This document shows, piece by piece, positions 1,628 to 31,350 of a stretch of 32,000 bases of DNA. Location: the NCBI RefSeq assembly GCF_018398935.1, contig NZ_CP074694.1, positions 5,970,001-6,002,000 of the forward strand, given 5' to 3'. Origin of the DNA: Telmatocola sphagniphila (lineage in GTDB: Bacteria > Planctomycetota > Planctomycetia > Gemmatales > Gemmataceae). The notes beneath the pieces were generated by a model. That model was not told where the DNA came from, did not search any database, and saw nothing but the letters and a program-made list of their open reading frames with translations. A program made the translations under genes and the position numbers. Within the stretch, counting starts at the first letter, position 1. Each line of letters begins with the position of its first letter.

Positions 1628-2010
1628 GGATGAGTAAAGCGAGCAGGCCGAATTTTGGGAAGGGCATAGGTGAGCCCATTTCAGGATTCTGCCTGTTGTA
1701 TTTTCGGGGGGGTATCTGTGGAAACTGCAGAGAACACATGGAGAAAACTCAGAGGACTGTCCCCTGAGTAGCGGTTAGGGAAGAAGAGTTTTTACCACCG
1801 AGTACACCGAGAGCACTGAGGGATATTGGGGGGGAAGTTCGTTTTTTGGTGCTCTGCGTGCCAAGGTGGGTCGAGTCACTTCTGAGATTTTTGAAGAAGC
1901 CCAAGCAGGAAGCGATTGATCTTTCGGTGATGGCCCTATCAGCTTGGTTTGACAAATCTTATGTTTTTTGTTACTAACTCTAGGCAGTAGATCCCCAAGA
2001 GGTTTCGTCC

Positions 2011-7100: not shown

Positions 7101-8698
7101 ATGGCATCGGCCAGTTCGCGGAAGCGCTTCTCGCTTTTGCGTAAAGCGTCCTCGGCCAGTTTGCGTTCCGTTATATCCTGATCGACGCCTTCGATGCGGA
7201 TGAGTTTGCCATCCTTATCTCGGATGGCTCGCGCATGGTACTGAACCCAGAGTTGGTTGCCGTCGGGATGCACCAGCCGGACATCTTCGACGATTTCGTC
7301 GAGACCTTCGTGAAGCTTTTGCAGGGATTGTCGCATTCTCGTCCGGTCTTCCGGATGCACTGAATCGAGAAGCGTTTCCATCGTGCATTTCGACAGATCA
7401 TCCAGACCGTACAGCTCGAACATGACATCGGAAAATTCGGTGATCTCGTCTTTCAGCGGATCGTAGTGCCAGGAGCCGATGCGGGCCATCTCCTGGGCTT
7501 CCGACAACCGGGCTTCGCTTTGAATCAGCGCGGCCTCGGTTTTTTTGCGCTGCGTGATGTCCTCGACGACGGTGATGAAGTAAAGCGGTTCTCCTTCCTC
7601 CGATCGCCGGAGAGAAACAGTCGTGTTGACCCAGGTGCACGAGCCGTTTTTGCGAACGTACCTTTTTTCGAGTTGATAATTGGCAATCTCCCCCGCGAGC
7701 AGCTGTCGGCCGCGAGACAGATCCACGGGAAGATCTTCCGGGTGGGTAATCTCCTGAAAGTTCTTCTGCAGCAGCTCCTCACGGGAATAATCGGTGATTT
7801 CGCAGAAACGCTGATTCACCCGCAGCCATCGACCTTCGGGAGAGACATGGGTGATGCCCACGGCGGCCTGTTCGAATGTTACCCGGAATTGCTCGGCGGT
7901 TTCGCGAAGAGCGATTTCCACTGCTTTCCGCCGATTGATATCTTCAATCACGGATATCATGTAGAGCGGTTCGCCCGATTCGGAACGCTGCAAGGAGCCC
8001 GTCCGGTTCACCCAGATGTGGGTGCCGTCCTTACGGATATAGCGTTTTTCAATTTGCGCCGATTTGACTTTTCCTTCCCGGATCGCGCAAACCTGCTTCA
8101 TATCCTCTTCGAGATCGTCCGGGTGAGTGATGTCCCGAAAATTAAATTGCATCATTTCTTCGCGGGAATAACCGGTGATTTCCAAAAGCCGGTCGTTCAC
8201 TTTGATCCAGTTCCCCGACAGCGAGACGTGCGCCAAGCCCACAGCGGCCTGCTCGAAAGTGCTGCGAAAAAGGAGCTCCGCCTGACGAAGTGCGGCCGAA
8301 GCCCGTTCCGCCTCTTTTTTGAGGGCGTGCGTGGCCAGGGCGTGCTTGACGGAAGGAACCAGCCGGCCCAGACGGTCTTTCAGCAGATAGTCGAAAGCCC
8401 CTTTTTTGATGATCGAGACGGCGGCTTCTTCCCCGATGGAGCCGGATACCAGAATGAATGGAATGTCCCGATTCACTTCCTGAAGAACTTCGAGAGCCCG
8501 ATAACTGTCGAATTGAGGCAGATTCCAGTCGCACAGAACCACGTCCGGACCTTTGGCCAATTCGTCGCGAAACTCCACTTCGGTCTGCACCACCGAGCTT
8601 TCAAAATTCAATCCGCCGCGGCGCAGTTCGTAATTGATCAGCTTGGCGTCCTGCGCGTTATCTTCCACCAATAAAATTTTGAGTGGGGATTCAAGCAT
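4130..8698 (-). CDS. Hybrid sensor histidine kinase: REC, 8 PAS domains, HisKA, HATPase_c, REC (no TM segment)
   Basis: 1522 aa. The N-terminal receiver is KILLVEDNAQDAKL...VVLCDWNLP. Eight PAS-like units each end in D-I-T/S-x-R-K. The H-box is AGGIAHDFNNLL, the N-box is LMNLAVNARDAMP, G1 is DTGVGM and G2 is GKGTGLGLAMV. The C-terminal receiver is ILLAEDEEAVRR...LLLTDVVMPELGG. Its ATG (8698-8696) overlaps the upstream response-regulator stop by 8 nt. Confidence 0.95.
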   Translation of the reverse strand: MLESPLKILLVEDNAQDAKLINYELRRGGLNFESSVVQTEVEFRDELAKGPDVVLCDWNLPQFDSYRALEVLQEVNRDIPFILVSGSIGEEAAVSIIKKGAFDYLLKDRLGRLVPSVKHALATHALKKEAERASAALRQAELLFRSTFEQAAVGLAHVSLSGNWIKVNDRLLEITGYSREEMMQFNFRDITHPDDLEEDMKQVCAIREGKVKSAQIEKRYIRKDGTHIWVNRTGSLQRSESGEPLYMISVIEDINRRKAVEIALRETAEQFRVTFEQAAVGITHVSPEGRWLRVNQRFCEITDYSREELLQKNFQEITHPEDLPVDLSRGRQLLAGEIANYQLEKRYVRKNGSCTWVNTTVSLRRSEEGEPLYFITVVEDITQRKKTEAALIQSEARLSEAQEMARIGSWHYDPLKDEITEFSDVMFELYGLDDLSKCTMETLLDSVHPEDRTRMRQSLQKLHEGLDEIVEDVRLVHPDGNQLWVQYHARAIRDKDGKLIRIEGVDQDITERKLAEDALRKSEKRFRELADAIPQIVWEARSDGAVNSFNKRAEEYFGLKSSELLGWAWTNLVHPDDRSRTLELWQQTIHSVTPQDLEFRLLRKDKLYRWHIARQVPIHDNYGQIEGWYGTCTDIEDLKQALNELREERDRFLKIARSVPGALVSFRISQEGKASLPYVSPGFENIFGLSHDQVKDNADPFFAIFHPNDLEWIPESLTKSSRTLTPWFGQFRANNPKRGEIWVESRSMPTLQEDGSTLWHGVVTDITERKQAEVEQQKLISLIQHSKEFISIADLNGKITFINAGGRRMVGLGEHDDISNLHFSDYLDPPWREFMRQTVIPTALENGLWEGEMQMKNLHTGASIDVFRSIFLIRDATGRPGWYANVTVNITDRKRSERLIRDSEEKYRRLVDVLPDALFTHSNGKINFCNPAFVKLMGAQNEDQLLGVDPLSIVHTEHRDLISHRISLMRNTGESLNGIEIRIVRRDGRSVLVHSVGSPLPDPVNDSYVVALTDLSERERTLDLLHSVQMSVSDAIITIDAWGTIHTVNASFTRLFGYGQQEVIGKHLREFIPEALEAEIFTLDGRPPRTEKSLGVNRELQAHRKDGLQFPVEITLTHFQLDGELHFTCVIRDISSRKRLEEQFQQAQKMEAVGRLAGGIAHDFNNLLTVINGFSEILLEEYPGSSMGREPLAAIRDAGERAAGLTAQLLAFSRKAIIEPKILDLNQVVDSVSRLLRRLIGEDIRLESHLDSKTSLVKIDPGQLEQVLMNLAVNARDAMPEGGRLTIETAHLEIEDSAFNLAMECPPGSYVQLSVSDTGVGMSDEVKKRIFEPFFTTKGLGKGTGLGLAMVYGIIHQAGGAIEVESKVGFGTQFKILFPRISKTDSQENSVDNHGVPRGQETILLAEDEEAVRRLTTTALSMLGYKILQADSGRTAIEMAESYPGTIDLLLTDVVMPELGGRMLADAVRKLRPNVRVLYMSGYMDDAVVRQGIETSKDAFIQKPLTQSTLAKKVRLVLDAES

Positions 8699-12219: not shown

Positions 12220-12536
12220 AAATCGCAGGCTCGCGAATAGAGTTTTTGCGATCCAGGGAGAGATTGCTTATAGTTTATATAGTTCAAATAATCGAATTCG
12301 TCGAAATCCTTTTACGGCAATAATTTACGGAAACAAACCAGTCCAAATTCAGTGCTATTTATTAATGGATGATTTACCAGAGTTTATGCAACGAGTGGCC
12401 GAAAATATCAAATTAATATTTTGCTTAAAAAACCGAGAGCTAATTCGGCACTATACTTGCAATTCAGGGTCGAAAGCAGCCCTGCGATCCTGTTCGCCAA
12501 ACGGCCCCCGAACCTTCGCATGGGATATCGAGCATA
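12220..12536. promoter_or_regulatory. AT-rich divergent intergenic control region between the two kinase transcription units
   Basis: A 317-bp gap between the ATG at 12219 (-) and the ATG at 12537 (+). It is visibly AT-rich compared with its flanks. It contains TATAGTT twice (12269-12275, 12278-12284), TTTACGG twice (12311-12317, 12324-12330) and the palindrome CGAATTCG. No promoter has been mapped, so the function is inferred from position only. Confidence 0.4.
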
Positions 12537-15182
12537 ATGCGACCTCCGCGAGTCCTCTTGTTTCTGCTCCTGTTAATAATTGCGATTTTGCTCCTGGGAG
12601 TAGGACAATCCCTGCTTCCTCTCAAGCAACCGGACTTTCTCGCGTTGCTTCTTTCGATGCTGGGGGGCGCGGTTCTCACCTCGGCTTTTTTCATTTTCTT
12701 TCGAACTGGCAACTCACTTAGCGCTTCCGGAGTAACGGTGACCGATCTGCGAGCCGAGATTGGTCTGGAATTGAACCGAAATGCCTCGCTTCCGGAGATT
12801 CTCAAATCCTGTTCCGAAGCGATTTTGAAACATTGCTCGGCCTCATTCGTGCGCATCTGGACTTTGAATGAAGCGGAGCAGATGCTGGAATTGCAGAGCA
12901 GCGTCGGCCGCTACACTCATCTCGACGGGATGCATGCCCGAATTCCGGTGGGGAACTTTAAAATCGGTGAGATCGCCCGAGATCGGCAGTCTTTACTTAC
13001 CAACGAGCTGGCAAATAGCGAAAAAATCAGCGATCCGGAATGGGCTCGCCGCGAGGGCATGGTCGCATTTGCCGGTCATCCCTTGATCTATGGCGATTCG
13101 CTGGTGGGCGTGCTGGGACTGTTCGCTCAACGCGCACTTTCACCTTCGATTCTCAATGAATTAAAGGTGGCCGCCGATGCCCTGGCGCTGGGGATTTCCC
13201 GAAAGCGGGCCGAGAACCTCTTAAAGCAGGGAGAAGCTCGCATCCGGGCGATTATCGATGCCGCTCTGGATTGCATCATTACAGTCGACAAAAAGGGAAG
13301 AGTGATCGAATTCAACCCGGCCGCGGAAAAGACCTTCGGCTACAGTCGGGAAGAAATTCTGGGGAAGGATTTCAGCGAAATCATCATTCCCACGTCGCAT
13401 CGCCAACAGCATCAGGCGGGTATGAATCGCTTCCTGCTGACGGGAACATCGCACATCCTTCGTCAGCGTCTCTACGATGTTCTGCCGGCTATTCGTAAAA
13501 ACGGAGAAAGCTTCCCCACGGAATTGACTGTGGTGCCGCTCGAACTGGAGGGAGAGCCGATTTTCATTGGCTTTCTGCGCGACATCACCGATCAAAAAAT
13601 TGCCGCCTCAAAGCAGGCCGCCGCGGAAGCCGATCTGCAGAATGCCATCATTCAAGCGGAAAATGCCAACCAGACCAAGAACCTCTTCCTGGCCAATATG
13701 AGCCACGAATTTCGGACACCTATGGGGGCCATCGTCGGCTATGCGGAGATGCTGCTGTCGCCCAAATTGAATGCCACGGAACGGGTTCAGATTATTCGCG
13801 GCATAAGTCGAAACGGCCGGCACATGCTGTCGCTGATCAACGACATTCTGGATTTGACCAAGATCGAAGCGGGCAAGATGCGGCTGGAACTGATTCCGTG
13901 CCGGCTCTGGCGGATTATCGGCGAAGCTGTGTCAGTTGCGGAAGTGCAGGCGGAAGAGAAGAAGATTACACTCAACGTCTCGCAGACCGGCCAATTACCC
14001 CGGTCCATGACCTCCGACCCGACCCGGTTGCGGCAGATTCTGGATAATCTGCTCTCCAATGCGGTGAAGTTCACTCCGCAACGCGGTTCCATCAATCTCC
14101 GCATCGGTCTGGCCAGCGCTTCCGAAGACCGGACCCATCTGTGCATCGAAGTCGAGGATCAAGGTGTCGGTATGTCGAAAGAGGTGATCGATCGCCTTTT
14201 CGAACCCTTCGTACAAGCCGATGCCTCGACCACGCGTCGCTTCGGGGGTACCGGGCTGGGTCTGAGCATCTGCCAGCGTCTGGTGGTGGCGTTGCGCGGC
14301 CGGATTGAAGTCACCAGTCAGCCGAGCAAAGGATCGAAATTCACTGTCTTTCTGCCGGTCGATAAAGCCGATCTCGACGATCTGGTCGACGAGGAAACTG
14401 CGGCACGCGACACCCACCCGGCCGCGCTGCGGGCGACTGCCAAAGGAACCTCGCAGTTTCGGAGTCGTTTGCGGGTGCTGGTCGCCGAGGACAACCCCGA
14501 TAATCAGAACATTATCCGGTTCTTTCTGCAGCAGGCGGGTCTGAGCGTCGAACTCGCCGAGAATGGCGAAAAAGCTGTGAATGCCGCGTTCAATGGTCAG
14601 TTTGATTTCGTGCTGATGGATATGCAGATGCCGCATATGGATGGCTATGCCGCCGCCAGCCTGCTACGACAGAAAGGCTACAAAAAGCCGATTATCGCGC
14701 TGACGGCCCATGCCATGGCGGGCGATGAGGAAAAATGCAAAGCGGCCGGCTGCGATGGCTATCTCACCAAACCTCTCGACATCGAAAGGCTAGTCAAGCT
14801 CCTAGGACGATTGTCACGTAAGGAAGGGCAGAATAACGATGCGTTACCCAGCCCGTCGCGAATTGTAGTCCCGTCTCCCGAGCAAGTGAGCGAATCGGCT
14901 AAACTGGATTTGAAATCTCTCCGCGATACCTACATTGCCTCGCTGATGTTCAAGATCAAGGAATTTAAGAAGGGGTTGGAAGAAGAGGATCGCAAGCTGA
15001 TCGGCGATGCGGCTCACCGCCTTCGCGGCTCGGCCGCTATGTACGACTTGCAGGACGTTTCTGAAACCGCCGGGTTAATCGAAGACGCCAATCGCGAAGG
15101 AAGGGAATTCGATCTGCTCGGAGATCTGATTGCGGAGCTGGAGACGGTGTGCCAGCAGGCTTTGCGGGCGCCAGCACAATAA
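12537..15182 (+). CDS. Membrane-anchored hybrid sensor histidine kinase: 2 TM, GAF, PAS, HisKA, HATPase_c, REC, Hpt
   Basis: 881 aa. The TM helices are VLLFLLLLIIAILLLGV and LALLLSMLGGAVLTSAFFIFF. The GAF-like region ends in GHPLIYGDSLVGVLGLF. The PAS domain contains DCIITVDKKGRVIEFNPAAEKTFGYSREEILG. The H-box is MSHEFRTPM, followed by LLSNAVKFTP, DQGVGMS and GGTGLGLSICQ. The receiver is RVLVAEDNPDNQ...FVLMDMQMPHMDG. The C-terminal Hpt motif is AAHRLRGSAAMYDL. Confidence 0.95.
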   Translation: MRPPRVLLFLLLLIIAILLLGVGQSLLPLKQPDFLALLLSMLGGAVLTSAFFIFFRTGNSLSASGVTVTDLRAEIGLELNRNASLPEILKSCSEAILKHCSASFVRIWTLNEAEQMLELQSSVGRYTHLDGMHARIPVGNFKIGEIARDRQSLLTNELANSEKISDPEWARREGMVAFAGHPLIYGDSLVGVLGLFAQRALSPSILNELKVAADALALGISRKRAENLLKQGEARIRAIIDAALDCIITVDKKGRVIEFNPAAEKTFGYSREEILGKDFSEIIIPTSHRQQHQAGMNRFLLTGTSHILRQRLYDVLPAIRKNGESFPTELTVVPLELEGEPIFIGFLRDITDQKIAASKQAAAEADLQNAIIQAENANQTKNLFLANMSHEFRTPMGAIVGYAEMLLSPKLNATERVQIIRGISRNGRHMLSLINDILDLTKIEAGKMRLELIPCRLWRIIGEAVSVAEVQAEEKKITLNVSQTGQLPRSMTSDPTRLRQILDNLLSNAVKFTPQRGSINLRIGLASASEDRTHLCIEVEDQGVGMSKEVIDRLFEPFVQADASTTRRFGGTGLGLSICQRLVVALRGRIEVTSQPSKGSKFTVFLPVDKADLDDLVDEETAARDTHPAALRATAKGTSQFRSRLRVLVAEDNPDNQNIIRFFLQQAGLSVELAENGEKAVNAAFNGQFDFVLMDMQMPHMDGYAAASLLRQKGYKKPIIALTAHAMAGDEEKCKAAGCDGYLTKPLDIERLVKLLGRLSRKEGQNNDALPSPSRIVVPSPEQVSESAKLDLKSLRDTYIASLMFKIKEFKKGLEEEDRKLIGDAAHRLRGSAAMYDLQDVSETAGLIEDANREGREFDLLGDLIAELETVCQQALRAPAQ

Positions 15183-17208
15183 GGCGTTTCTGCGATTGCA
15201 GATTCTTGTTGAGATTGCGAAGTACACCGCTCCAGCCCTTGGGGAATTGGCCCGCCTCGGCGAGGATACAGATGCCGTCGGTATACTGATCGAGCAGTTC
15301 CAGGAAGGCGGGCTGGGTGGTATCCGGTCCGAGGATCAGTACCAGCGAGTAATTTTTTCGCGCCTTTTCGAACCAACTTTGGGCTTCCGGTGTCGCCAAT
15401 CCGTCCGCGTGGATATCGGCCGGCATCTGAACGACGCTGAATTCCGTTTCCGAGGCCCAATCCTCCTTCTGTATTTCAATCGAAGGACGGCAATCCAAAA
15501 GCAGAATATTCTCTTTGCGGGCTGTCAGGACCGTAGCGAGATTTCGTACCAGATCTCGGGTAACTTGCAGGCCCGGATGGCTGGTCCAAAGCAGGCTGAC
15601 GCCGTACTCGGGCAGCCAACGACGTACCGAGGTCGCCAGCCGTCGAGTGCTATCCAGGCCCAAAGTATCAAGTTGAGTGAGTTGATCGATCCCGGAACTC
15701 AAAGTCAGAAACTGACCTTCCCGGTAGAGGAGGAGTATCTGTTCACCCAGGATTGAGCCCATGCCGATCATCATTGTGACGCCGAAGCCGATGATCAGCC
15801 AGATTTTCTTGCTGGAGGCAACGGGGTAGGGGCTACTGATGGCGGGCAGAATAACAGTGAACTCACAGGATTTCTGCTCGCGCAGCCGTTGGAAGAGGGC
15901 GACCTGCTCGGCCAGGCGATTCCGCTCGGTATCCAGCGACTCCATATCTTTCTGCAGGCTGTACGATTTGATCGAGAGGGCGCGCAGTTCCTCCTGCCTA
16001 CGGTTCATCGCGGCCAGGCCTTTATCGACTTCGAACATTTCCTTCTGCAGGCCGATCAGTTGGAGATCGAATTCCAGCTTGCGGAAAAGCGTCTGCTGAA
16101 TGATCGGCGAACCGGCACTCTTGGATTTGCCTTTGGGAACGACAATCGCATCGATGTTGGTCAGTTCCTCTTTCCACTTCTTGACGTTTTCCGTGTCGGT
16201 GAGCTTGGACGTGAGAATTTCCACGTTTTTGGCGGCTTCATCGAGTTCGACGCGAGAAACCGCGCCGGTGGCCCGCAGTTTGGCCAGCTGTTCGTATTCC
16301 CGACGTTTGACGGTCAATTCCGCGAGAAATTCCTGCCGTTTCTTCTCTTCTTCGATCAATTCGCGCAGCCGATCCTGCCGACGGCGATTGTCAGTAAGCG
16401 ATTCCTGGGCCGCTTCGAATTTCTTGTCGCTTTCCTCTTCCTCTTCGGAACGCTTTTTAAAATCCTCGATCTCGCGGACCAATCGTTCCTTCTGAGCGAT
16501 GACCGTTTGCTCGGTCCGACTGGCGTGAGTTTTCGCTTCCCGCAAAGTGGCCATTTCGCGCTGGATCAGTTCCATTTCCGACTTGGAATCTCCCAGGTTA
16601 TTGCTTTTCAAAAACGCGTCGAAGGCTTCGCTCGCCTTACGGTACTTGTCGGCGCCTTCTTTCAAGCGGATTTCATAATCCTCCAGATACCGTCCCAGCC
16701 GTTCCATGCGCTGCTTCTGCAGCAGGTCGATGAAGTGCTGCATCAGACGATCGGTCATTTTCACGGCCACGTCCGACTCGGCCCATTGGAAGCTGATCGA
16801 AACGGTTTGAGTGGATTTCGGCGCGACGACTTTGAACAATTTGTCCAAAAGCGAAGTCGGTACGGTGAGCTGGAATTCTTCGATCAGGCTGGTAAGTACC
16901 GGCGTGGACTTGATGAGAGACACCTGCGTCTGCATGTCGGGGGGCGTGTAAAGACCCTTCTGGTTTTCGGGCACGGGCAACGGTGTATAGAGCAGGGTGC
17001 CGGAGGCTTCCCAGGTTTTTTTTCCGAGCAGAGCGCCCATGGCCAGGGCCATGCAGATGCCGATTCCGAAGGTGAGCAAAACCGATTTTATGCGCGTACG
17101 GACTGCCCGGATCACCAGATCAATGATCATACGGGGAGATATTAACGGCTTCTTTTTCGGGGTGGTTTCGGCCACTCCGGAAACTTCCACGGGCTCATGC
17201 TCTTTCAT
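15037..17208 (-). CDS. Polysaccharide co-polymerase (Wzz/GumC/Wzc-like chain-length determinant) with a degenerate C-terminal kinase-like domain
   Basis: The architecture is TM1 (VLLTFGIGICMALAMGALLG), a Wzz-like segment, a long E/K/R-rich coiled coil, TM2 (IWLIIGFGVTMMIGMGSILG), and a 229-aa cytoplasmic domain. The track start at 17220 is TTG. The ATG at 17208-17206 overlaps the upstream GT4 stop TGA (17207-17205) as ATGA, so I prefer that start. The 3' end overlaps the convergent kinase gene by 146 nt. Confidence 0.8.
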   Translation of the reverse strand: MKEHEPVEVSGVAETTPKKKPLISPRMIIDLVIRAVRTRIKSVLLTFGIGICMALAMGALLGKKTWEASGTLLYTPLPVPENQKGLYTPPDMQTQVSLIKSTPVLTSLIEEFQLTVPTSLLDKLFKVVAPKSTQTVSISFQWAESDVAVKMTDRLMQHFIDLLQKQRMERLGRYLEDYEIRLKEGADKYRKASEAFDAFLKSNNLGDSKSEMELIQREMATLREAKTHASRTEQTVIAQKERLVREIEDFKKRSEEEEESDKKFEAAQESLTDNRRRQDRLRELIEEEKKRQEFLAELTVKRREYEQLAKLRATGAVSRVELDEAAKNVEILTSKLTDTENVKKWKEELTNIDAIVVPKGKSKSAGSPIIQQTLFRKLEFDLQLIGLQKEMFEVDKGLAAMNRRQEELRALSIKSYSLQKDMESLDTERNRLAEQVALFQRLREQKSCEFTVILPAISSPYPVASSKKIWLIIGFGVTMMIGMGSILGEQILLLYREGQFLTLSSGIDQLTQLDTLGLDSTRRLATSVRRWLPEYGVSLLWTSHPGLQVTRDLVRNLATVLTARKENILLLDCRPSIEIQKEDWASETEFSVVQMPADIHADGLATPEAQSWFEKARKNYSLVLILGPDTTQPAFLELLDQYTDGICILAEAGQFPKGWSGVLRNLNKNLQSQKRLIVLAPAKPAGTPSPAPQSDLRADRIPFLRDWRLRLTRRFQKRPASRT

Positions 17209-18449
17209 GTCACACACCAAAGTTTCGCTTCGAGCAAATCAACGGCCGGAGGGGGTTCCGACCGAATCGCCTCGGCCGTGAGGGTCGATTCGAGGATCTT
17301 CGCCACCCGGGAAGCAGTCGCTTCCCAAGTGTATTCCTCCACGAGCCTTCTTCGCGCGTTCTGCCGAATAATAGTGCGCATTGCGGGATGGTCGAATAAT
17401 TCGTACAAACCCGCTTTCCAATCGGGCAGATTATTGGTCGAAACCAGCCGCCCGGCGTCGCCGTGATCCAGGATCAGAGGGATATCCCCCTGATCGGACG
17501 CCAGACAAACCGCCCCGGCGGCCATCGACTCCAGAATTTTTAACGGGCAGAAGTAAAAGTGTTTCAGCTGCCGGGCGTGCGGCGCTACCATCACATCCAT
17601 CAGGCTCAGGTATTTGGCGGCCTCCTCGGGAGCCTGGCGACCAGTGAAGATCACCCGGGGGTTCTTCTGGGCCGCCTGCTTGAGCCGGGGCAGTTCGGGA
17701 CCGCTGCCAATGAGTAGCCAGCTCAGATCTTCACGCTCGGTGGTGGCCTCGATCAGGTCCGCCAGCAAAGCGACACCGTGAAATCTTTGAAAAGTCCCTA
17801 GAAAACCGGCAACATTCGGAGTGGTAATCCCCAGTTTCTGTCTCTGTTCCCGGATTTGTTCATCGCTGGGAATTGCAAAATGGCTCAACTCGACACCATT
17901 GGATACGGCGTGCACCGGAACTTTTGTTCCGTAGTTGTCCAGAATGGTTTTGGCCGGGTGGCTGATAGTGATGGCGGCCCGGCTCTGTTTCAGGCCCCAT
18001 TTTTCAATCGCTTCCAATAGTCCGGGGGGATGCCAGCGGTCCGAGCTGAAGCCGCGGCATTCGTAGGCCGCCGGGGCATCGACGTAGGTAACCAGGGGCA
18101 CGCCGAGTTTCCGGGCGGCCCAGTGCATGGAGAATCGGTAGGGGTCGCTGCGGCAGAGAATCACATCGGGCCGGGCCGCTTGGACCGCCGCGAGATCTTT
18201 TTTTAACGAAGAAAAATTTGTTGCAATTCCTCGACCGAACCAGAGGCGAGTTTTGAGGCGAGAGAGGAAATTTTTGCGCTTACCCGCATTATTCGAGCTA
18301 AGTTCCCCTATCGAAGTGTTCCACGGTCCGTCCGATCCGTGAACTATAACTTCATGTCCGAGGGTGCGGAGGCGTTCGCTGATCGCCTGAACCATCTTGG
18401 CGGCCGGGTGGTGAGCTTCGGTCAGGTAGTGGCTGTATAAGACACGCAT
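17205..18449 (-). CDS. Glycosyltransferase family 4 (GT-B fold)
   Basis: From the ATG at 18449 the protein begins MRVLYSHY..., a typical GT4 N-terminus preceded by the purine-rich AAGAGAG. A longer alternative starts at ATG 18485. The C-terminal half has the GT4 pattern FYFCPLKILESMAAGAVCLASDQGDIPLIL. Confidence 0.85.
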   Translation of the reverse strand: MRVLYSHYLTEAHHPAAKMVQAISERLRTLGHEVIVHGSDGPWNTSIGELSSNNAGKRKNFLSRLKTRLWFGRGIATNFSSLKKDLAAVQAARPDVILCRSDPYRFSMHWAARKLGVPLVTYVDAPAAYECRGFSSDRWHPPGLLEAIEKWGLKQSRAAITISHPAKTILDNYGTKVPVHAVSNGVELSHFAIPSDEQIREQRQKLGITTPNVAGFLGTFQRFHGVALLADLIEATTEREDLSWLLIGSGPELPRLKQAAQKNPRVIFTGRQAPEEAAKYLSLMDVMVAPHARQLKHFYFCPLKILESMAAGAVCLASDQGDIPLILDHGDAGRLVSTNNLPDWKAGLYELFDHPAMRTIIRQNARRRLVEEYTWEATASRVAKILESTLTAEAIRSEPPPAVDLLEAKLWCVT

Positions 18450-23823: not shown

Positions 23824-24096
23824 GCGGCAGCGAACTCTGAATTTTTGAAGATCCGTTTCAATTCATTTCCTGGGTAGAGCTCGGGAAATCTTCTCTTCGT
23901 TAATCCCTTCCCACATCGCGAAAAGGGCGTCTATTTTCTTTCAGATCTCCTCTTTTCAATCTCAAACAATTTCGATTTCGAGTGAGTGATGAAAGGTCGC
24001 GTCGCGTGGGGAATTTTTGTATACTTCCGAGCGGTAATCTGTTAATTTTTAATCGCGAAAAGGCTTTGTTGGTCACAGCTCTCGCGGATATTCGCC

Positions 24097-24828
24097 ATGT
24101 TAAAATTCTTAGCTGGAATGCTGATTTGTTTGCTCGCCTCAAGCGGATATGGTTATCCGCCGCCGCGAAGCCCGGCCCCTCCTCCGTCCGAATCGCAACT
24201 CGAACGGTGGTGGGAGGATCTGGCAAAACAGGAGCCGAAGGCATCCACAGCTTTGTTGAAGCTATCGAGCTACCCAGAACAGACATTAAATCTTTTAAAG
24301 AAAAAACTTTATCGTCTGGAGCTGGACGATAAGAGATTCCTCAAGTTGCTAGCCGATTTGGGTTCTAAAGACGAGAAGGTAGCACGGGCAGCGGATGCGG
24401 AATTTCGAAAATATGATCCGCGCTTGGCGAAAGATATCCCGAATCTTTTTTTCAAGTCGATGGACGAATTGACCACAATGCGATTGGTCGCAATTCTCGA
24501 AGATAAGGAATTTGGCATCTACGAGAAAAAGGGAAAACCTGAGATTACACTGCAGCCCCATGATAGTCAAATCCGGATAACCCTCAGATGGCCGATCAAT
24601 AAAGAGGAATTCGAAGAAGTCAGTAGTTGGATATTCGCTATTAGTCCGGAGTGGACGGTAAAAAAGGATTGGCAATGCATGCAGCGAGCCATTGCATTAC
24701 TGGAAATTTTCAACTCCCCGGAAGCTATTGCGATTTTGAAGGATATCGCCAAAGGGCATAAACATGCCGCGCCGACCAAAGCGGCGTTTGAGGTCTTGGG
24801 TCGCATGAAGCTGGCCTTGAAGGATTAA
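24097..24828 (+). CDS. Secreted helical-repeat protein of unknown function, paralogue B1
   Basis: A 243-aa ORF with an ATG start and a signal-peptide-like N-terminus, MLKFLAGMLICLLASSGYG. It contains QLERWWEDLAKQEPKASTALLKLSSYPEQTLNLLKKKLYRLELDDKRFLKLLADLGSKDEKVARAADAEFRKYDPRLAKD. It aligns along its full length with the next ORF. Confidence 0.75.
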   Translation: MLKFLAGMLICLLASSGYGYPPPRSPAPPPSESQLERWWEDLAKQEPKASTALLKLSSYPEQTLNLLKKKLYRLELDDKRFLKLLADLGSKDEKVARAADAEFRKYDPRLAKDIPNLFFKSMDELTTMRLVAILEDKEFGIYEKKGKPEITLQPHDSQIRITLRWPINKEEFEEVSSWIFAISPEWTVKKDWQCMQRAIALLEIFNSPEAIAILKDIAKGHKHAAPTKAAFEVLGRMKLALKD

Positions 24829-24910
24829 TTCTAAGAAGATCCATCTCGATGCATCTAGATTGACATTTTTGAAAGATACCTTTCAGCCGCTGAAACAACG
24901 AGACTTTGCC

Positions 24911-25633
24911 ATGGGAAAATTGCTCACAGTAATGCTCTGTTGGCTGGCCATTTCGAATGGTCCTGTATATCCGGCCCCGCCTACCGATAAACAATTGGAG
25001 CAATGGTGGAAGGATTTGGCGAAAAAAGAGGGAATTTCCTATGTTGCGCTGCTTAAGCTCTCTCAGCATCCCGAACAGACGATTCCGTTTCTGAAGAAGC
25101 ATCTCACCCGACTGGAACTCGATGATAGGAAACTGAAAAAGTTGCTAGCGGATTTGGGTTCCGGGGATGAGAAAATTGCCAAATCGGCGGATCAGGAACT
25201 CCGACGATTCGATCCTCGATTAGCAAAAGACGTGGAGAAGTATTTTGATGAAAAGTTAGATGCGCTGACGCTAGTTCGATTGGTGACAATTTTTGCGGGA
25301 TGGGAATTTGGGCATTTAGAAAAGAATGAAATTTTACCTCTGGTAACATTTGGCGGGCATCTCGAACATACCGATTTCGTCTATATAGGGATCAAGTGGA
25401 TAAATAATGAGATGACTATATCCTGTGGTGGTAAAACAGAAAGCTTAAATAATATTTTGGATCAATCCGAAGAATGGCTTCTTCGGTTTCGAGCTATTGC
25501 GATTCTTGAGCATTTCGGTTCAACGGATGCTATCGAGATTCTTCAAGAACTTGCCAAAGGGAACAAAGTTGTACGGCCCACCAAGGAAGCCGTTGAAGCC
25601 TTGAAGAGGCTGAGATTTTCGTTGAAGGAATAA
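24911..25633 (+). CDS. Secreted helical-repeat protein of unknown function, paralogue B2
   Basis: The ATG at 24911 gives MGKLLTVMLCWLAISNG, which parallels the B1 N-terminus. The track start at 24860 is a TTG. It contains QLEQWWKDLAKKEGISYVALLKLSQHPEQTIPFLKKHLTRLELDDRKLKKLLADLGSGDEKIAKSADQELRRFDPRLAKD. Confidence 0.75.
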   Translation: MGKLLTVMLCWLAISNGPVYPAPPTDKQLEQWWKDLAKKEGISYVALLKLSQHPEQTIPFLKKHLTRLELDDRKLKKLLADLGSGDEKIAKSADQELRRFDPRLAKDVEKYFDEKLDALTLVRLVTIFAGWEFGHLEKNEILPLVTFGGHLEHTDFVYIGIKWINNEMTISCGGKTESLNNILDQSEEWLLRFRAIAILEHFGSTDAIEILQELAKGNKVVRPTKEAVEALKRLRFSLKE

Positions 25634-25658
25634 TTTAGCCGGGCTCCTCCGCGCCACC

Positions 25659-26414
25659 TTACTCCTCCACCGACTTCTGAGCCGCTGTCACTTTCGATAG
25701 CTTCGTATACCAGAGAATTCCCCGAAGGATTGAGAATATTCCAAACCCCAGGAATCCAGTCATCACAAAATACCGGCCGTTCGGCCCCGCCATGTTAAAC
25801 GAAAAGAGAGTAATCCCGATACCCAGGGCCAGGCTCAGACCACCAAGCCCCAGATAAAACAGAGCTTTCTTTTTAATCGCTTCCCGGGCCGCTTCAGGAT
25901 GCATTTTCAGGCTGATTTCGATCAGATCGCGCAACTGCGCAATGGCCTCTTTCTTCGGTTCGAAAACGAGCGGATCTTCGCTTTCCCAGTCGACCAGTAA
26001 CGTGGGCTTTCCCCAGAAACTGGGGAAATGAATTCGCGTAATCGCCTCCCCGGCTGAGATCTGAGTTAGCAAGGCGTTTTCGGAATCCAGAATCTGCATG
26101 CCCTCAGCTGTTGCTTCCACGTAACAGCGCTTCCCTTGGACCGGCTTCTCCAAACCATCCAGAGGAATTCGCACGGTAGCTTGCCCCGTCGGTGAATCTT
26201 TCGCGGCAGTGATTGTGATCTCTTCTTCAGGCAGTTTTTCTGGCTCACCCGCAATTTTGTTCCAGAAGAGTATCGCCACGCCGCCCAAAGTGAGAATGGC
26301 CCCGAAGATGATGAATGGAATTTTCGCCTGGGGAAGAAATTCGCCGAACATCACGCCCAGAACGCCAAACCCGATACCACTCAAAATTCCGATGATGGCA
26401 AAGACCTTATTCAC
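25659..26414 (-). CDS. Four-TM membrane protein with a central soluble domain (hypothetical)
   Basis: 251 aa, with a GTG start at 26414. There are two N-terminal TM helices (VFAIIGILSGIGFGVLGVMFG; IPFIIFGAILTLGGVAILFW), a soluble region of about 130 aa, and two C-terminal TM helices. The N-terminal module is paralogous to ORF 26578-26817. Confidence 0.7.
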   Translation of the reverse strand: MNKVFAIIGILSGIGFGVLGVMFGEFLPQAKIPFIIFGAILTLGGVAILFWNKIAGEPEKLPEEEITITAAKDSPTGQATVRIPLDGLEKPVQGKRCYVEATAEGMQILDSENALLTQISAGEAITRIHFPSFWGKPTLLVDWESEDPLVFEPKKEAIAQLRDLIEISLKMHPEAAREAIKKKALFYLGLGGLSLALGIGITLFSFNMAGPNGRYFVMTGFLGFGIFSILRGILWYTKLSKVTAAQKSVEE

Positions 26415-26577
26415 AGCTGGACTCGCTTGAAAATGACATAGAGAGCGTAAGGAATACGGCTTTCATTTTTGATAGGAATAGACCGAATTCTGTCCATCCA
26501 AGTGAGGCATTCCCAGCGAGTGAAGAGAAGTCCAAGTCAAGCTCGGCTGATACGTCGAAAAATCCGCTTCAAAACAC

Positions 26578-26817
26578 TCATTTTTCCAAGGAACCGGAAT
26601 CCTGGTTCTTTTGGGTAGCACTCGCTTGATGATCCGAATTCTCGAGCTTCCCGATAATCCGCTTCCATAACAGCAGGCCGAGGCCCATCAGAAAAGTGAG
26701 TCTGGCTAAAACAAAGAACAGGAGTTTGCCTTCCGGATAAAACGATTCGGCATAGTACCCCAGAACCGCAAAGCTGACTCCCATCGAAATACCCAGGGCT
26801 GCAAGGATTTTGGACAT
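26578..26817 (-). CDS. Small two-TM membrane protein (hypothetical)
   Basis: A 79-aa ORF with an ATG start. MSKILAALGISMGVSFAVLGYYAESFYPEGKLLFFVLARLTFLMGLGLLLWKRIIGK aligns without gaps with the first ~57 aa of the neighbouring 251-aa protein. I count about 17 identities by eye, including M, K, A, G, F, VLG, F-P, K, F, G, L-W and I-G. Confidence 0.6.
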   Translation of the reverse strand: MSKILAALGISMGVSFAVLGYYAESFYPEGKLLFFVLARLTFLMGLGLLLWKRIIGKLENSDHQASATQKNQDSGSLEK

Positions 26818-27128
26818 AGCCAGGCTCTTTTGAGATTGAATTGCGGAGTTGCACCGCTCAGTAGTGGCTTACGAAATATTAGAGTTCGAAGACTCGAATT
26901 GCATCAATTTCCATTCGGGGAAAACATCCAGTTCTACCGACAGTTTATCCGAAGTAAGAAGGGGTTAATATTGGCGAACTGCTTGGGCATTTGGGTAAAT
27001 TGCGAATTTTAGGCAATAAGATCGACTCCCGCTTCCGGTATAATCACCGTAATTTGGCAATCAGGGCCGAAGCGGAATTGCAAGGCTTTTTAACTCTCCT
27101 CGGAATCGAAATTACTGAGTGTACCTTT
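26818..27128. promoter_or_regulatory. Divergent intergenic region upstream of the FG-GAP gene, with a TATAAT hexamer and a repeated heptamer
   Basis: A perfect TATAAT lies at 27038-27043, 85 nt upstream of the ATG at 27129. I saw no convincing -35 element at 17-bp spacing. GAATTGC occurs at 26838, 26896 and 27075, and AAATTGC at 26995. Confidence 0.3.
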
Positions 27129-29732
27129 ATGAAGAAACTGCACCTTATCGAATTGGAAAACCGAATCACCCCGGTAGTCTCGGCCTCACTGAACGGCTCC
27201 ACGCTGAACATCTCGGAGAACGCCGCGAATGACTCCGCTATTGTGGGAACCAACGGCAGTAACATTGAGGTTCGCGATGGGGCAAACAATCTGATCCTGA
27301 GTGTGGCTCAGTCCAGCGTCACCGATCTCAATGCCTCAGTAACCCCGGCCGCCAATCAATCGCTCGTCTTCAAAAACGCGCTCAACTTCACCGGCTCGGT
27401 GGTCGCTAGCCAGCTCACGACCATTTCGGTCGATGCCGCGTTGTCGGCCGCAAATGTCACTCTTTCTGCGGCCAACTTGAATTTCACCTCACCTATCAAC
27501 GTCGGTAGCGGCATCATCACTCTCCAGCAGCAGTATGGCGCGAGCCAGGCCGAGAATATCGTGATCGGCGGCACGGCCCAGACCGGGAGTCTGAATCTCG
27601 ACGCGTCGCAACTGGCCACTTTCACGGCGGGCATTCTCCGGATCGGTCGAACCGACAATACTGGCAACATCACGATCAACAGTCTGACGCTACCGGCCGG
27701 CGTGCCGATCCTCTCGTTGCGAACCGGGGGCAATGTCACACTACCAGTGGTCAGCGGCCAGATCTCGACTCTGGTGGTTCCGAATCTGGCCATCGCGGCG
27801 GGCGGATCGGTCAGTCTGGATGGGCCGAATGCGGGAAAACTGGATGTGGAAAATCAGTTGGCCATTAGTGCTACCGGCTCTGTCTACGTCGATAATCCCG
27901 ATGAAACCAGCGGCCAAAATCTGACGATTGGCACTGTGGACGGCATAGCCGGGATACACACTTCTGGGGCCGTCTATCTGAGGGCGGTTAATCAGGTGAT
28001 CTTCCAGAATCCGATCACTACCACTTCGACGGTGCAGTTGGAAACCGCCCAGTTCATTGGCCAGCCGGGGCAGACGGCCATTTTTGCTTCGGGATTGAAT
28101 AGCCACGCTAACGCCATTGGCACGCCGAGCAATCCACTCCAGACGCAGGTCACGACCTTTGCGGGAGTACTGGCCTTATCGGGAACTTATCTGGCCAATG
28201 TCGGCACTCTGACTATCGGAACGGTACTCGGTGAAAGTGGTGTTCTCAGCATTCGTGGTTTTGGTGGGCCGATCGAGTTTTTCGCTCCTTCTTCTACGAC
28301 CAGTGATGGGAATCTCACGCTGGTGATTGATCAGCCGATTGAAGATAACATCGTGGTGCATGGGGGCGCGAAGACGAACTCGGTCACGATCAACTACAAC
28401 CTCGGGGCGACGTTGCCGGGCATGGCTTTCAGCGATGCACCCACCGGCAGCCAGAATAGTCTGACGCTCACCGATACGGGCGATACGACTGCCCATACCT
28501 TCTACGGTAGTGATACCGCTGCCGGATTGGATAATAAGAATTTCACGCTGGCGAACATTCAAAGTATCACATTCAACGGGGGCCTTGGCTACGATTCCTT
28601 TTACGTTACCCCTTCGATGAATCAGACCGCCTTCTTCGTGAATGGGGGAGGCGCAGGTAATGTACTTCGCGTAGACACGACCGGTACGCAAGGAAGTAAT
28701 CGGCAGTATACCCAGACGAGCACCGGGAAAACCGGCACCTGGACGTTCACGAATGCCCAGACAATTACATTTACAAATATTGGCAGCTTTGGAGATAACG
28801 GTACGCATTACATCGCAGTAGGCGTTGGTATCGGCGGGCCAGGCGCGGTGAACGTCTATTCCGATGACATGACTCAGAAATTCAGCTTCTATCCTTATTC
28901 GCAAAATTTTAACGGCGGCGTTGTGGTGGCGACCGGCGATGTCAACGGCGACGGCGTCGATGATATCGTAACCGGGGTGGCGTCGGCCGCCGACCCGCAT
29001 ATTGAAGTCTTCGATGGCGTGACCGGGAAGATGATCATGTCCTTCGATGCCTTCGATCCGGCCTATCGAGGTGGCGTGACGATTGGCTTGGCCGATCTGA
29101 GCGGGCAGGGCTACGACGATATTATTGTTGGCGCTGCCGTGGGAACTTCGCATGTTGTAGCGTTCGATGGAAAGACGGGGGCGCTAGTCCAGAGCTTCCT
29201 CGCTTACCCGGGCTTTAATGGCGGGGTAACCGTGGCCGGTGGCGATGTCGCGGGCAACGGCTACGACGACATTATTACCGGCACCGGTCCGGGCGGCCCG
29301 CCGCATGTGAAAGTGTTCGATGGGAAAAGCCTCGCGGTGCTCAAATCTTTCTATGCGTTCTCGACTTCCTACACGGGAGGAATTTCCGTAGCGGCCACCG
29401 ATCTGAATGGCGATGGCAAAGCCGACCTCATCGTCGGAGCCAGCGGTTCGAATGTCGATACGCACGTGGTCACGTTCGACGCCGTGACCGGAGCCCAAAC
29501 GAATTCCATTGAAGCGTTCACCGGCTTCTACGGCGGGGTTCAAGTCGCGGCCAAGGACTTCGATGGCAATGGCGAGGGCGAACTGTTCTTTGTCCCGGGC
29601 GCGGGCGGTCCGCCGCATTTAAGAATTATTACCATCCTGCAGGTCGATTCGCCCAAGGAGAATTTGTTCAGCGAGTATGCGAATATTTACACGTTCTCAC
29701 CCAGTTTGTTGTCGGGCTTCTATGTGGGGTAG
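27129..29732 (+). CDS. Large extracellular protein: N-terminal beta-helix-like region plus C-terminal FG-GAP/VCBS beta-propeller repeats
   Basis: The ATG at 27129 gives MKKLHLIELENRITPVV; the track start at 26991 is a TTG. The N-terminal ~550 aa are rich in N, S, T and G with short beta-strand repeats. The C-terminal ~270 aa carry five FG-GAP-type Ca-binding loops: GDVNGDGVDDIVTG, ADLSGQGYDDIIVG, GDVAGNGYDDIITG, TDLNGDGKADLIVG and KDFDGNGEGELFF. Confidence 0.88.
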   Translation: MKKLHLIELENRITPVVSASLNGSTLNISENAANDSAIVGTNGSNIEVRDGANNLILSVAQSSVTDLNASVTPAANQSLVFKNALNFTGSVVASQLTTISVDAALSAANVTLSAANLNFTSPINVGSGIITLQQQYGASQAENIVIGGTAQTGSLNLDASQLATFTAGILRIGRTDNTGNITINSLTLPAGVPILSLRTGGNVTLPVVSGQISTLVVPNLAIAAGGSVSLDGPNAGKLDVENQLAISATGSVYVDNPDETSGQNLTIGTVDGIAGIHTSGAVYLRAVNQVIFQNPITTTSTVQLETAQFIGQPGQTAIFASGLNSHANAIGTPSNPLQTQVTTFAGVLALSGTYLANVGTLTIGTVLGESGVLSIRGFGGPIEFFAPSSTTSDGNLTLVIDQPIEDNIVVHGGAKTNSVTINYNLGATLPGMAFSDAPTGSQNSLTLTDTGDTTAHTFYGSDTAAGLDNKNFTLANIQSITFNGGLGYDSFYVTPSMNQTAFFVNGGGAGNVLRVDTTGTQGSNRQYTQTSTGKTGTWTFTNAQTITFTNIGSFGDNGTHYIAVGVGIGGPGAVNVYSDDMTQKFSFYPYSQNFNGGVVVATGDVNGDGVDDIVTGVASAADPHIEVFDGVTGKMIMSFDAFDPAYRGGVTIGLADLSGQGYDDIIVGAAVGTSHVVAFDGKTGALVQSFLAYPGFNGGVTVAGGDVAGNGYDDIITGTGPGGPPHVKVFDGKSLAVLKSFYAFSTSYTGGISVAATDLNGDGKADLIVGASGSNVDTHVVTFDAVTGAQTNSIEAFTGFYGGVQVAAKDFDGNGEGELFFVPGAGGPPHLRIITILQVDSPKENLFSEYANIYTFSPSLLSGFYVG

Positions 29733-29742
29733 GGGGAAAAGT

Positions 29743-29767
29743 GTTAGCCCGAAACGTCAGTGAGGGC
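29743..29767 (-). repeat. Inverted copy of the 25-nt core of the downstream tandem array
   Basis: GTTAGCCCGAAACGTCAGTGAGGGC is the exact reverse complement of GCCCTCACTGACGTTTCGGGCTAAC. It begins 11 nt after the FG-GAP gene stop. It can itself fold (AGCCC-N13-GGGCT) and is followed by TTTT. Confidence 0.9.
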
Positions 29768-29808
29768 TTTTGGTATGGATTCTAATGCAGTGAGAATACC
29801 AGGTGGGT

Positions 29809-30300
29809 GGAAGTTCTGGAAACGGGAAGTTTCGACTTATTAATGCCCTCACTCACGTTTTGGGCTAACAAAGCCTATGCGGGGGGAAGTTCTGGAGACG
29901 GGAAGTTTCGACTTATTAATGCCCTCACTGACGTTTCGGGCTAACAAAGCCTATGCGGGTGGAAGTTCTGGAAACGGGAAGTTTCGCCTTATTAATGCCC
30001 TCACTGACGTATCGGGCTAACAACGCAAATCGGGCTAACAAAGCCTATGTGGGTGGAAGTTCTGGAAACGGGAAGTTTCGCCATATTAATGCCCTCACTG
30101 ACGTTTCGGGCTAACAAAGCCTATGCGGGGGGAAGTTCTGGAAACGGGAAGTTTCGCCTTATTAATGCCCTCACTGACGTTTCGGGCTAACAACGCAAAT
30201 CGGGCTAACAAAGCCTATGTGGGTGGAAGTTCTGGAAACGGGAAGTTTCGCCATATTAATGCCCTCACTGACGTTTCGGGCTAACAACGCAAATCGGGCA
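29809..30300 (+). repeat. Non-coding tandem repeat array: six units of 76 or 94 nt, organised as a duplicated 170-nt super-unit
   Basis: The units start at 29809, 29885, 29961, 30055, 30131 and 30225, each beginning GGAAGTTCTGGAAACGGGAAGTTTCG. Their lengths are 76, 76, 94, 76, 94 and 76 nt. Segments 29961-30130 and 30131-30300 are identical over the first 157 nt except for one base. Stop codons occur in all frames. Confidence 0.92.
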
Positions 30301-30654
30301 AATGGAGCCAACGCGCGGTCGGACGGGATCTGACTCACTCGTCCGCTAAGAATTGAGTCCCGGCCAATTATCTCGCGCCCGGCCCGAAAATATTTGAATT
30401 TTTCACTTCGTCATCAGGTGCCCCCAATTCGATCCCTTTTCTCGCATTCCTTCCCTCTCACGACTCGCTCATCAACCGCCGTTTTATCAGAGTGACTGAA
30501 GAGAATTTTCTCAATTTGATTGAGTTCCGCTGATGGCATCAAAGAAATTATGCCGCAGTAGAAAAGCCGGATATTTTTGGCCTCTGGCGCACCAGTTGCG
30601 ATTAGTAGCTCATCGAGATCAGGAAAATTCATCGCAATTATAGGGGATCTTAAA

Positions 30655-31350
30655 GTGGCAGCAGTCTTACTCGATGCGGAACCCATCGCAACAGTTAAAG
30701 CCCCCGTGCGACGGCCGATTCCAGAAGCCGGTTTGGCCGTAGGGCGACTCTATACCATCGCAAAGCGAACGACCGACATCGTGGTTGCTCTCGGTGCGAT
30801 CATCGCTCTGGCCCCTCTGGGCTTCGTGGTGGCACTGCTTATCAAGCTGACCGACATGGGACCGGTTTTCTTCGTCCAGAAGCGAATCGGCAAAGACGGT
30901 AAAGCCTTCTCCTTCATCAAGTTCCGCTCGATGATCGTGAATGCCGATCAGTTGAAAATGACCTTGAGCAAGCATAGCCATCACGGGGACAGTATCACCT
31001 TCAAAATGAAACGCGACCCCCGGATTACCTGGATTGGTTCGATAATTCGCAAAACGAGCATTGACGAACTGCCACAACTGTTCAATGTTTTAACTGGCGA
31101 GATGAGTCTGGTAGGTCCGCGACCCGCCGTGCCTTCAGAGGTGGCCCGCTACGAACCCCGCCATAAGGGTCGTCTGGCCGTGCAGCCGGGTATCACTTGC
31201 ATCTGGCAGGTTCGGGGACGAGGCGACATCCCCTTCGAACAACAGGTCAAGATGGACTTGGAATACATCAACCGTCGGTCCTGGTGGTACGACCTGATAC
31301 TGATGGTGGAAACGGTTCCCGCAGTTTTAACCGGCCGTGGCGCTTACTAA
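30655..31350 (+). CDS. Polyprenyl-phosphate sugar-phosphate transferase (bacterial sugar transferase family, WbaP/PglC-like priming enzyme)
   Basis: [57 protein letters not shown] and [21 protein letters not shown] are the hallmark motifs. The start is uncertain. The longest ORF begins at TTG 30577. GTG 30655 is preceded by AGGGGA, and GTG 30706 is also in frame. The stop at 31348-31350 is firm. Confidence 0.88.

Follow-up and report, generated by a model that had tools for sequence, protein, structure and literature searches.

A Lineage-Specific, Recently Expanded Intergenic Array of a Palindromic Unit Next to a Glycan Operon in Telmatocola sphagniphila

Results

The 32,000-nucleotide stretch of Telmatocola sphagniphila DNA that we analyzed (the window; contig NZ_CP074694.1, positions 5,970,001 to 6,002,000) holds a polysaccharide gene cluster whose products include several PAS hybrid kinases and glycosyltransferases. 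Toward its right end, a plus-strand gene for an FG-GAP repeat protein (27129..29732; Pfam FG-GAP and FG-GAP_3; 15220-17823 of the short-read contig L010) is separated by a 922-nt ORF-free gap from a gene on the same strand for a priming sugar transferase (Bac_transf, 30655..31350; Pfam PF02397, E = 3e-65), which has a GTG start and heads an operon of the order Bac_transf-DUF6492-Wzy_C-GT2-Wzx. The transferase is 100% identical to the protein known from T. sphagniphila, and a Logan short-read contig encodes it without change. Directly after the operon lies a convergent gene for a sigma-54-dependent response regulator with Response_reg, Sigma54_activat, and HTH_8 domains (5770-7431 of the short-read contig L002). 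The gap upstream of this glycan operon houses a tandem array, and the array locus starts just past the 3′ end of the FG-GAP gene. At the opposite end of the window, a tyrosine recombinase gene with XerC/D-like domains (L012, 7253-8191) ends at the very start of the sequence, and two tandem paralogous HEAT-repeat genes (263-1591 and 2011-3249) are 82% identical over a 90-nt stretch close to the 3′ ends (1484-1573 in the first, 3157-3246 in the second).

The array occupies 29805..30299 on the plus strand and consists of six head-to-tail units. A preliminary description of this DNA had reported a 25-nt core, GCCCTCACTGACGTTTCGGGCTAAC, in six direct copies, and the sequence bears this out: the cores start at 29845, 29921, 29997, 30091, 30167, and 30261 (spacings of 76, 76, 94, 76, and 94 nt) and carry 2, 0, 1, 0, 0, and 0 substitutions in that order. 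The units, each beginning with GGAAGTTC, start at 29809, 29885, 29961, 30055, 30131, and 30225 on the plus strand, as do the copies of the 26-nt sequence GGAAGTTCTGGAAACGGGAAGTTTCG, the one at 29885 having 1 substitution. Both the coordinates and TRF confirm the 76-nt unit with 94-nt third and fifth copies that had been described, the lengths being 76, 76, 94, 76, 94, and, for the terminal unit, 76 nt. The longer units contain TCGGGCTAACAA-CGCAAA-TCGGGCTAACAA (30012..30041 and again 30182-30211, plus strand), an internal 18-nt duplication whose insert is the exact stretch between two TCGGGC copies. Units 3+4 and 5+6 make up two 170-nt dimers which, as had also been claimed, differ at a single base over their first 157 nt (A at 30011, T at 30181); the last duplication, that of the dimer, is recent. 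The top period in TRF is 170 nt (2.5 copies, 97% matches, score 803), with further rows for periods 76 and 94. At the right junction (30276-30299), the left part reads as in the 18-nt duplication and gives way to the unique flank TCGGGCAAATGG; this flank, reading AACGCAAATCGGGCAAATGG, has a TCGGGC in common with the core. Every unit also holds direct repeats GGAAGTTC...GGAAGTTTC and the palindrome GAAAC/GTTTC. The array is non-coding, as proposed, with stops in all six frames and no ORF of at least 80 aa overlapping 29743-30300. A copy of TATTGGGGGGGAAGTTC at window positions 1824-1840 that matches a unit junction was judged to be due to chance because the match does not extend.

One further copy of the core lies to the left of the first unit, in the opposite orientation. 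Beginning 11 nt past the FG-GAP stop, GTTAGCCCGAAACGTCAGTGAGGGC (29743-29767) proved to be the exact reverse complement of GCCCTCACTGACGTTTCGGGCTAAC, again as first described. Its hairpin, AGCCC-GAAACGTCAGTGA-GGGCT, spans 29746-29768, lies 13 nt past the same stop, and is followed by TTTT. In a repeat search, the inverted arm extends to 29 nt (29742..29770, minus strand; 97% complementary), and the inverted repeats I1-I5 are all 29 nt long and 93-97% complementary; with each copy in the array, the inverted copy forms an inverted repeat of 26-29 nt, of which it makes up the left arm. A unique 34-nt spacer (29771..29804), read from the sequence and outside all TRF rows, separates it from the first unit. 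Pairing of the inverted copy with any one of the direct copies gives a 26-bp duplex with z = -8.1 as RNA and -7.0 as DNA, and this long-range stem dominates the fold of the locus as its sole outstanding structural feature. Single units and small hairpins are not thermodynamically unusual relative to shuffled sequences (z of +0.1 to -1.9, both strands). None of the three substitutions seen among the cores of the array affects a paired position, the A-to-G change in unit 2 preserves a G-U pair on the plus strand only, and one GGA per unit lies within a predicted hairpin loop. A scan of 29500-30900 found neither a sigma-70-type promoter nor an intrinsic terminator on either strand.

We considered whether the array could be an assembly artifact. 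In the Logan assembly of short reads from the same strain (SRR14506984), contig L010 ends at window position 29832 and contig L002 begins at 30270, and both ends sit exactly 30 nt (k-1, with k = 31) inside the repeated sequence, which is the behavior expected of a de Bruijn graph at a real repeat. Since both junctions are supported by independent short-read contigs, the artifact reading was rejected; the array in turn explains why short-read assemblies break at this point of the polysaccharide cluster.

Two relatives were compared: an ENA contig from an uncultured organism, L005, whose transferase is 68% identical, and a contig from a Gemmataceae MAG, L006 (60%). In both, Bac_transf comes right after GT4/AsnB (asparagine-synthase), the gaps measuring 172 and 294 nt, respectively, and neither relative has an FG-GAP gene or a tandem array upstream of Bac_transf. 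The array is absent from the relatives and is lineage-specific. Relative to L005 and L006, T. sphagniphila has ∼6.8 kb extra (23.83-30.65 kb), with the array at its right edge, and part of this segment is low in GC (0.47-0.49 vs about 0.55). The segment (23830-30650) is possibly an insertion. Its contents, besides the array and the FG-GAP gene, are three ORFs that lack a significant match in Pfam, one of them on the minus strand, and one further ORF with a weak, sub-threshold match to HEAT_2; no integrase or transposase was seen inside it. In L005, a perfect (CCGACAC) x 15 tract (6022-6128) fills the gap between Bac_transf and DUF6492 and is a candidate slippage-prone tract.

The part of the array that recurs in other genomes is the 23-nt hairpin AGCCC-TCACTGACGTTTC-GGGCT, with a 5-bp outer stem, a 2-bp inner stem, and a 13-nt loop region. 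When 185,579 species genomes were scanned for an exact 21-mer, one locus in one genome matched, that of Planctomicrobium sp. SH664; by our estimate, roughly 0.3 chance matches are expected in such a scan. Chance is nonetheless unlikely to account for this match because it extends to 23 nt, its host is a planctomycete, it lies 16 nt past the stop of topA, and there is a second copy nearby. That second copy, with two substitutions, lies 20 nt past the stop of purU and 930 nt from the first; the substitutions turn A..T into G..C at the predicted inner pair, so that the 2-bp inner helix is kept. This compensatory change is suggestive of a conserved inner pair, although it is not statistically strong, being a single event that 71 of 500 shuffles also reach. 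A 21-mer scan of metagenomes gave two loci, from one organism in two samples, whose nearest named relatives are Gemmataceae; here the hairpin lies between convergent genes and overlaps the stop codon of an ABC ATPase gene, and flanking bases extend its stem to 7 bp. The adjoining sequences vary from genome to genome (GTT-AGCCC, CTC-AGCCC, GGC-AGCCC, and AAT-AGCCC on the left; GGGCT-AAC, GGGCT-CTG, and GGGCT-ATC on the right). All four independent hairpin sites lie 0-20 nt past the stop codons of unrelated genes, and both orientations occur. The two SH664 copies (L007, 9939-9961 and 10888-10910) flank purU in inverted orientation, and the neighbors of purU differ in P. piriforme and strain SH661; the pair might mark a translocated segment. 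Since purU and the GFO/IDH/MocA gene have different neighbors in every relative compared, these relatives offered no orthologous counterparts of the hairpin sites. In the DNA sampled, the hairpin is a low-copy element of planctomycetes that is dispersed to positions just beyond the stops of unrelated genes. The identity of 23 nt spans two orders, Gemmatales and Planctomycetales, which is more than is usual for selfish REPs and hints at a constrained function.

Copy number was assessed with a covariance model of the hairpin, R1, searched against ∼167 kb from seven planctomycete genomes, of which ∼51 kb belong to T. sphagniphila. R1 scores 48-54 bits on each array core and has no further convincing match in the ∼167 kb; the best additional one (13.9 bits, E about 0.02) lies after purU in strain SH661. 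With filters off, R1 found no hairpin outside the array in the ∼51 kb of T. sphagniphila, and it found no other copy in ∼65 kb of other planctomycetes. SH664 has one exact 21-mer in its complete genome and one 2-mismatch copy within the 21 kb examined. REPs typically number tens to hundreds of dispersed copies per genome. An E. coli-like REP density, which is about 1 per 10 kb, is excluded by these data, and a family of a few dozen copies is compatible with the sampled DNA. The 51-nt linker of the unit has no second match in the ∼160 kb compared. An exact 21-mer scan of viral contigs gave 0 matches, and blastn of the core and the unit against plasmids gave none. Rfam 15 yielded nothing at gathering score over the whole window and nothing at E up to 10 over 29600-30750, Csr/Rsm families, riboswitches, and ribozymes included, and a tRNA/tmRNA search found none. 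No Y1_Tnp, the type of transposase encoded by the RAYT genes that accompany REPs and are often flanked by them, appears in the gene lists of the window, L002, or L012, and we found no paper on the repeat sequence itself.

Between the array and the transferase gene lies a sigma-54-type promoter match, TGGCGC-N5-TTGC (30585..30599, plus strand), with one mismatch to TGGCAC-N5-TTGC and 56 nt upstream of the GTG start. By number alone such matches are not above chance, 3 having been found in the window vs 1.7 expected. The Gemmataceae MAG has GCCTCTGGCGC-N5-TTGC at the equivalent position (2136-2150 of L006) and a perfect TGGCAC-N5-TTGC before its GT4 gene (537-551). In T. sphagniphila as in the MAG, the transferase gene thus has a sigma-54-type promoter (TGGCRC-N5-TTGC) in front of it, and a further one-mismatch site (12446-12460) lies ∼100 nt before a hybrid histidine kinase gene (12558-15182). 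Judging from these motifs and from the sigma-54 activator gene after the operon, glycan synthesis looks to be under sigma-54 control. The array lies 285-780 nt upstream of the predicted promoter. With a promoter that is conserved in L006 on its downstream side, the array falls outside the leader of the operon. A regulatory role of the array in the glycan operon is improbable, and the promoter is probably more relevant to the regulation of that operon. The unique DNA between array and promoter contains, outside the repeat, an inverted repeat, CGGACG-N14-CGTCCG (30320..30345), which, read from the sequence, would make a more conventional activator-binding site than the array and is a candidate for one.

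Discussion

The array is of a kind already known, an intergenic tandem array of a palindromic unit, and it is lineage-specific and recently expanded. The account that we place first, and to which we would give about even confidence, is that of a REP-cluster-like minisatellite in which one palindromic unit was reiterated together with its flanking DNA by slippage and unequal recombination. REP clusters have been described as singletons reiterated in tandem with flanking DNA, and in Thauera EPS genes are flanked by such REP-cluster arrays (Di Nocera et al. 2013, PMC3733652). The likeness of our array to the REP clusters and BIMEs of E. coli, Pseudomonas, Stenotrophomonas, and Thauera lies in a short extragenic palindrome that occurs near gene 3′ ends in both orientations, in the reiteration of a singleton with its flanking DNA, and in a position beside exopolysaccharide genes, where REP arrays have also been reported (PMC3733652). 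At 23 nt, AGCCC-N13-GGGCT falls within the 20-40 nt of the short imperfect palindromes known as REPs, and at four of four independent sites it is extragenic, at gene 3′ ends, and in either orientation. REPs, however, carry an unpaired GTAG or CGTC tag at one end (PMC3733652), whereas the T. sphagniphila hairpin has no such terminal tag and shows CGTC only inside its loop; its stem is only 5 bp, its 13-nt loop is of conserved sequence, and it is low-copy in all sampled DNA. Unlike in BIMEs, the six array copies are all direct and only the leftmost is inverted, so that orientations do not alternate. Formal REP or BIME status is thus not supported: the tag and the alternating orientation are lacking, and copy number is low in the DNA sampled. 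Of the three possibilities that the preliminary description left side by side, the REP/BIME-like one nevertheless comes closest, through the recurrence of the palindrome past the stops of non-homologous genes.

Other repeat systems share some of these traits. REPINs, as reportedly described by Bertels and Rainey in 2011, are two inverted palindromic units tens of nt apart that form one long hairpin. The inverted doublet of 29742-29770 with 29842-29870 likewise forms one long hairpin, but only one doublet was seen, with no sign of replication to other sites. The MIRU-VNTRs of Mycobacterium tuberculosis, which occupy ∼40 loci and contain small ORFs coupled to the flanking genes, resemble the array as head-to-tail intergenic units of ∼50-100 nt in operon regions that expand and contract by slippage or recombination; our array differs in that it is known at a single locus and has all frames closed. 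The BOX elements of Streptococcus pneumoniae, which number more than 100 dispersed copies, are, like the present locus, modular and intergenic, with one internal module of variable tandem number and ends able to pair into a long stem-loop, but here only the 23-nt hairpin, not a set of modules, was found elsewhere. A CRISPR array was rejected on the grounds that the sequences between the cores are nearly identical and not unique spacers; no Cas domains were found among the ORFs of at least 80 aa that were scanned. Integron attC sites have R″ (RYYYAAC) and R′ (GTTRRRY) in that order, with cassettes between sites. An attC or CALIN array was rejected as well, since in the ends GTTAGCC...GGCTAAC the order is reversed and both depart from the consensus, cassettes would not fit into a spacing of 76 nt, and there is no adjacent integron integrase.

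On the REP-cluster-like account, the nucleus would be the hairpin AGCCC-TCACTGACGTTTC-GGGCT, with one copy placed in inverted orientation behind the FG-GAP gene. Another copy, some 75 nt away and facing the other way, would have produced a REPIN-like inverted pair, and it is this other copy that, along with 51 nt of the DNA next to it, would then have been reiterated. In the first step, illegitimate pairing of short TCGGGC direct repeats may have given rise to both the 18-nt duplication and the first duplication of the unit. We infer slipped mispairing because the 18-nt insert is bounded by TCGGGC copies and the TCGGGC of the flank repeats that of the core; these direct repeats at the junction are likely slippage points. 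Later growth would have come from whole units undergoing unequal homologous recombination or replication slippage, the 170-nt dimer being the latest to be duplicated. A read-through transcript from the FG-GAP gene would form the 26-bp duplex and many small hairpins. The locus is probably at most a hairpin barrier or insulator between the 3′ end of the FG-GAP gene and a separately promoted operon, and the extra copies of the array are probably neutral.

A more mobile origin would explain some features of the locus. In a MITE- or REPIN-type element, the terminal inverted repeats would run from 29742 to about 29946, the interior would have been amplified later, and the transposase would lie elsewhere. 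The near-perfect 29-nt inverted repeat that brackets the locus (arms 97% complementary) agrees with this, as do the dominance of its stem in the fold (z = -8.1), a possible 3-nt AAG/AAG duplication around TGTTAGC...GCTAACA, and the place of the array at the edge of a ∼6.8-kb, partly low-GC segment missing from relatives. We nonetheless consider such an element unlikely. Elsewhere the core occurs as single palindromes and not as inverted pairs enclosing a linker, the SH664 pair encloses the whole of purU, the 51-nt linker is without a second copy in the 160 kb compared, a 3-nt duplication is weak evidence for a TSD, and no transposase is nearby. Less probable still is an enhancer array, in which the units would be upstream activator sequences for the neighboring sigma-54-dependent response regulator and would raise its occupancy at the transferase promoter. 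The array does lie upstream of a predicted promoter (30585-30599) conserved with L006, with a Response_reg/Sigma54_activat/HTH_8 gene directly downstream of the operon, and each unit offers direct repeats (GGAAGTTC...GGAAGTTTC) and a GAAAC/GTTTC palindrome. Yet the sites are not conserved along with the promoter, relatives with the same promoter having no such array; the distance of 285-780 nt is spanned by unique DNA with an inverted repeat of its own closer to the promoter; the near-identity of the units reflects very recent expansion and not maintained sites; and the core, their most conserved part, occurs elsewhere beside housekeeping genes, where no sigma-54 context was noted. Phased protein-binding sites, as suggested in the preliminary description, are conceivable, since a sigma-54 activator gene lies nearby; no positive evidence for them was found, and the array is not conserved.

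The same description had also proposed roles at the RNA level. A repeat-built ncRNA could act from the plus strand as a sponge for a protein of the CsrA/RsmA type or another RNA-binding protein, each unit presenting one GGA pentaloop (GAAAC-GGGAA-GUUUC), or its core hairpin could titrate a binding factor of its own; taken together, these two variants strike us as very improbable. The plus strand has 18 GGA vs 0 on the minus strand in 496 nt (background about 19 per kb), with one per unit in a predicted loop, and the unit-2 A-to-G change keeps its G-U pair on that strand only. This bias, however, comes from one 76-nt unit copied six times and is effectively one observation, and 29500-30900 holds no sigma-70-type promoter or intrinsic terminator on either strand. 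There is no Rfam match up to E of 10, Csr/Rsm included, and the sponge RNAs known to us have diverged, not near-identical, repeats. We give the least credence, and very little of it, to a leader or processive-antitermination RNA for the glycan operon. Only the position of the array, in the 922-nt ORF-free gap upstream of the operon, speaks for it; the conserved sigma-54-type promoter downstream of the array leaves a leader of about 45 nt, relatives have the operon without the array, and Rfam has no match. The proposal of a structured leader or antitermination RNA is thus supported neither by promoter position nor by conservation nor by Rfam.

Conclusions

The REP-cluster-like minisatellite that we favor leaves the hairpin as the sole point of wider interest, as the same 23 nt occur in a Gemmataceae isolate, a Gemmataceae-like metagenome organism, and Planctomicrobium. 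We tentatively entertain, with low confidence, that this hairpin is a previously undescribed, sequence-constrained cis-element of Planctomycetota, which would explain its identity across two orders at non-homologous post-stop sites. Its predicted parts are an outer AGCCC/GGGCU stem, a GAA/GA internal loop, an inner R-Y pair that the compensatory change would preserve, and a GUCA/UGAC tetraloop. Such a hairpin could be a 3′-end processing or termination signal, or it could be the hairpin that a conserved protein binding RNA or ssDNA recognizes, for example, an HUH enzyme. If so, the seven copies in T. sphagniphila would amount to a natural amplification that could titrate the binding factor.

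In practical terms, the array offers a ready-made VNTR marker for Telmatocola strains. To the best of our knowledge, signals of the kind that the hairpin may represent are essentially uncharted in Planctomycetota. If the hairpin is functional and does not reflect selfish spread, it would provide a handle on 3′-end formation or on a mobile-element system in this phylum.
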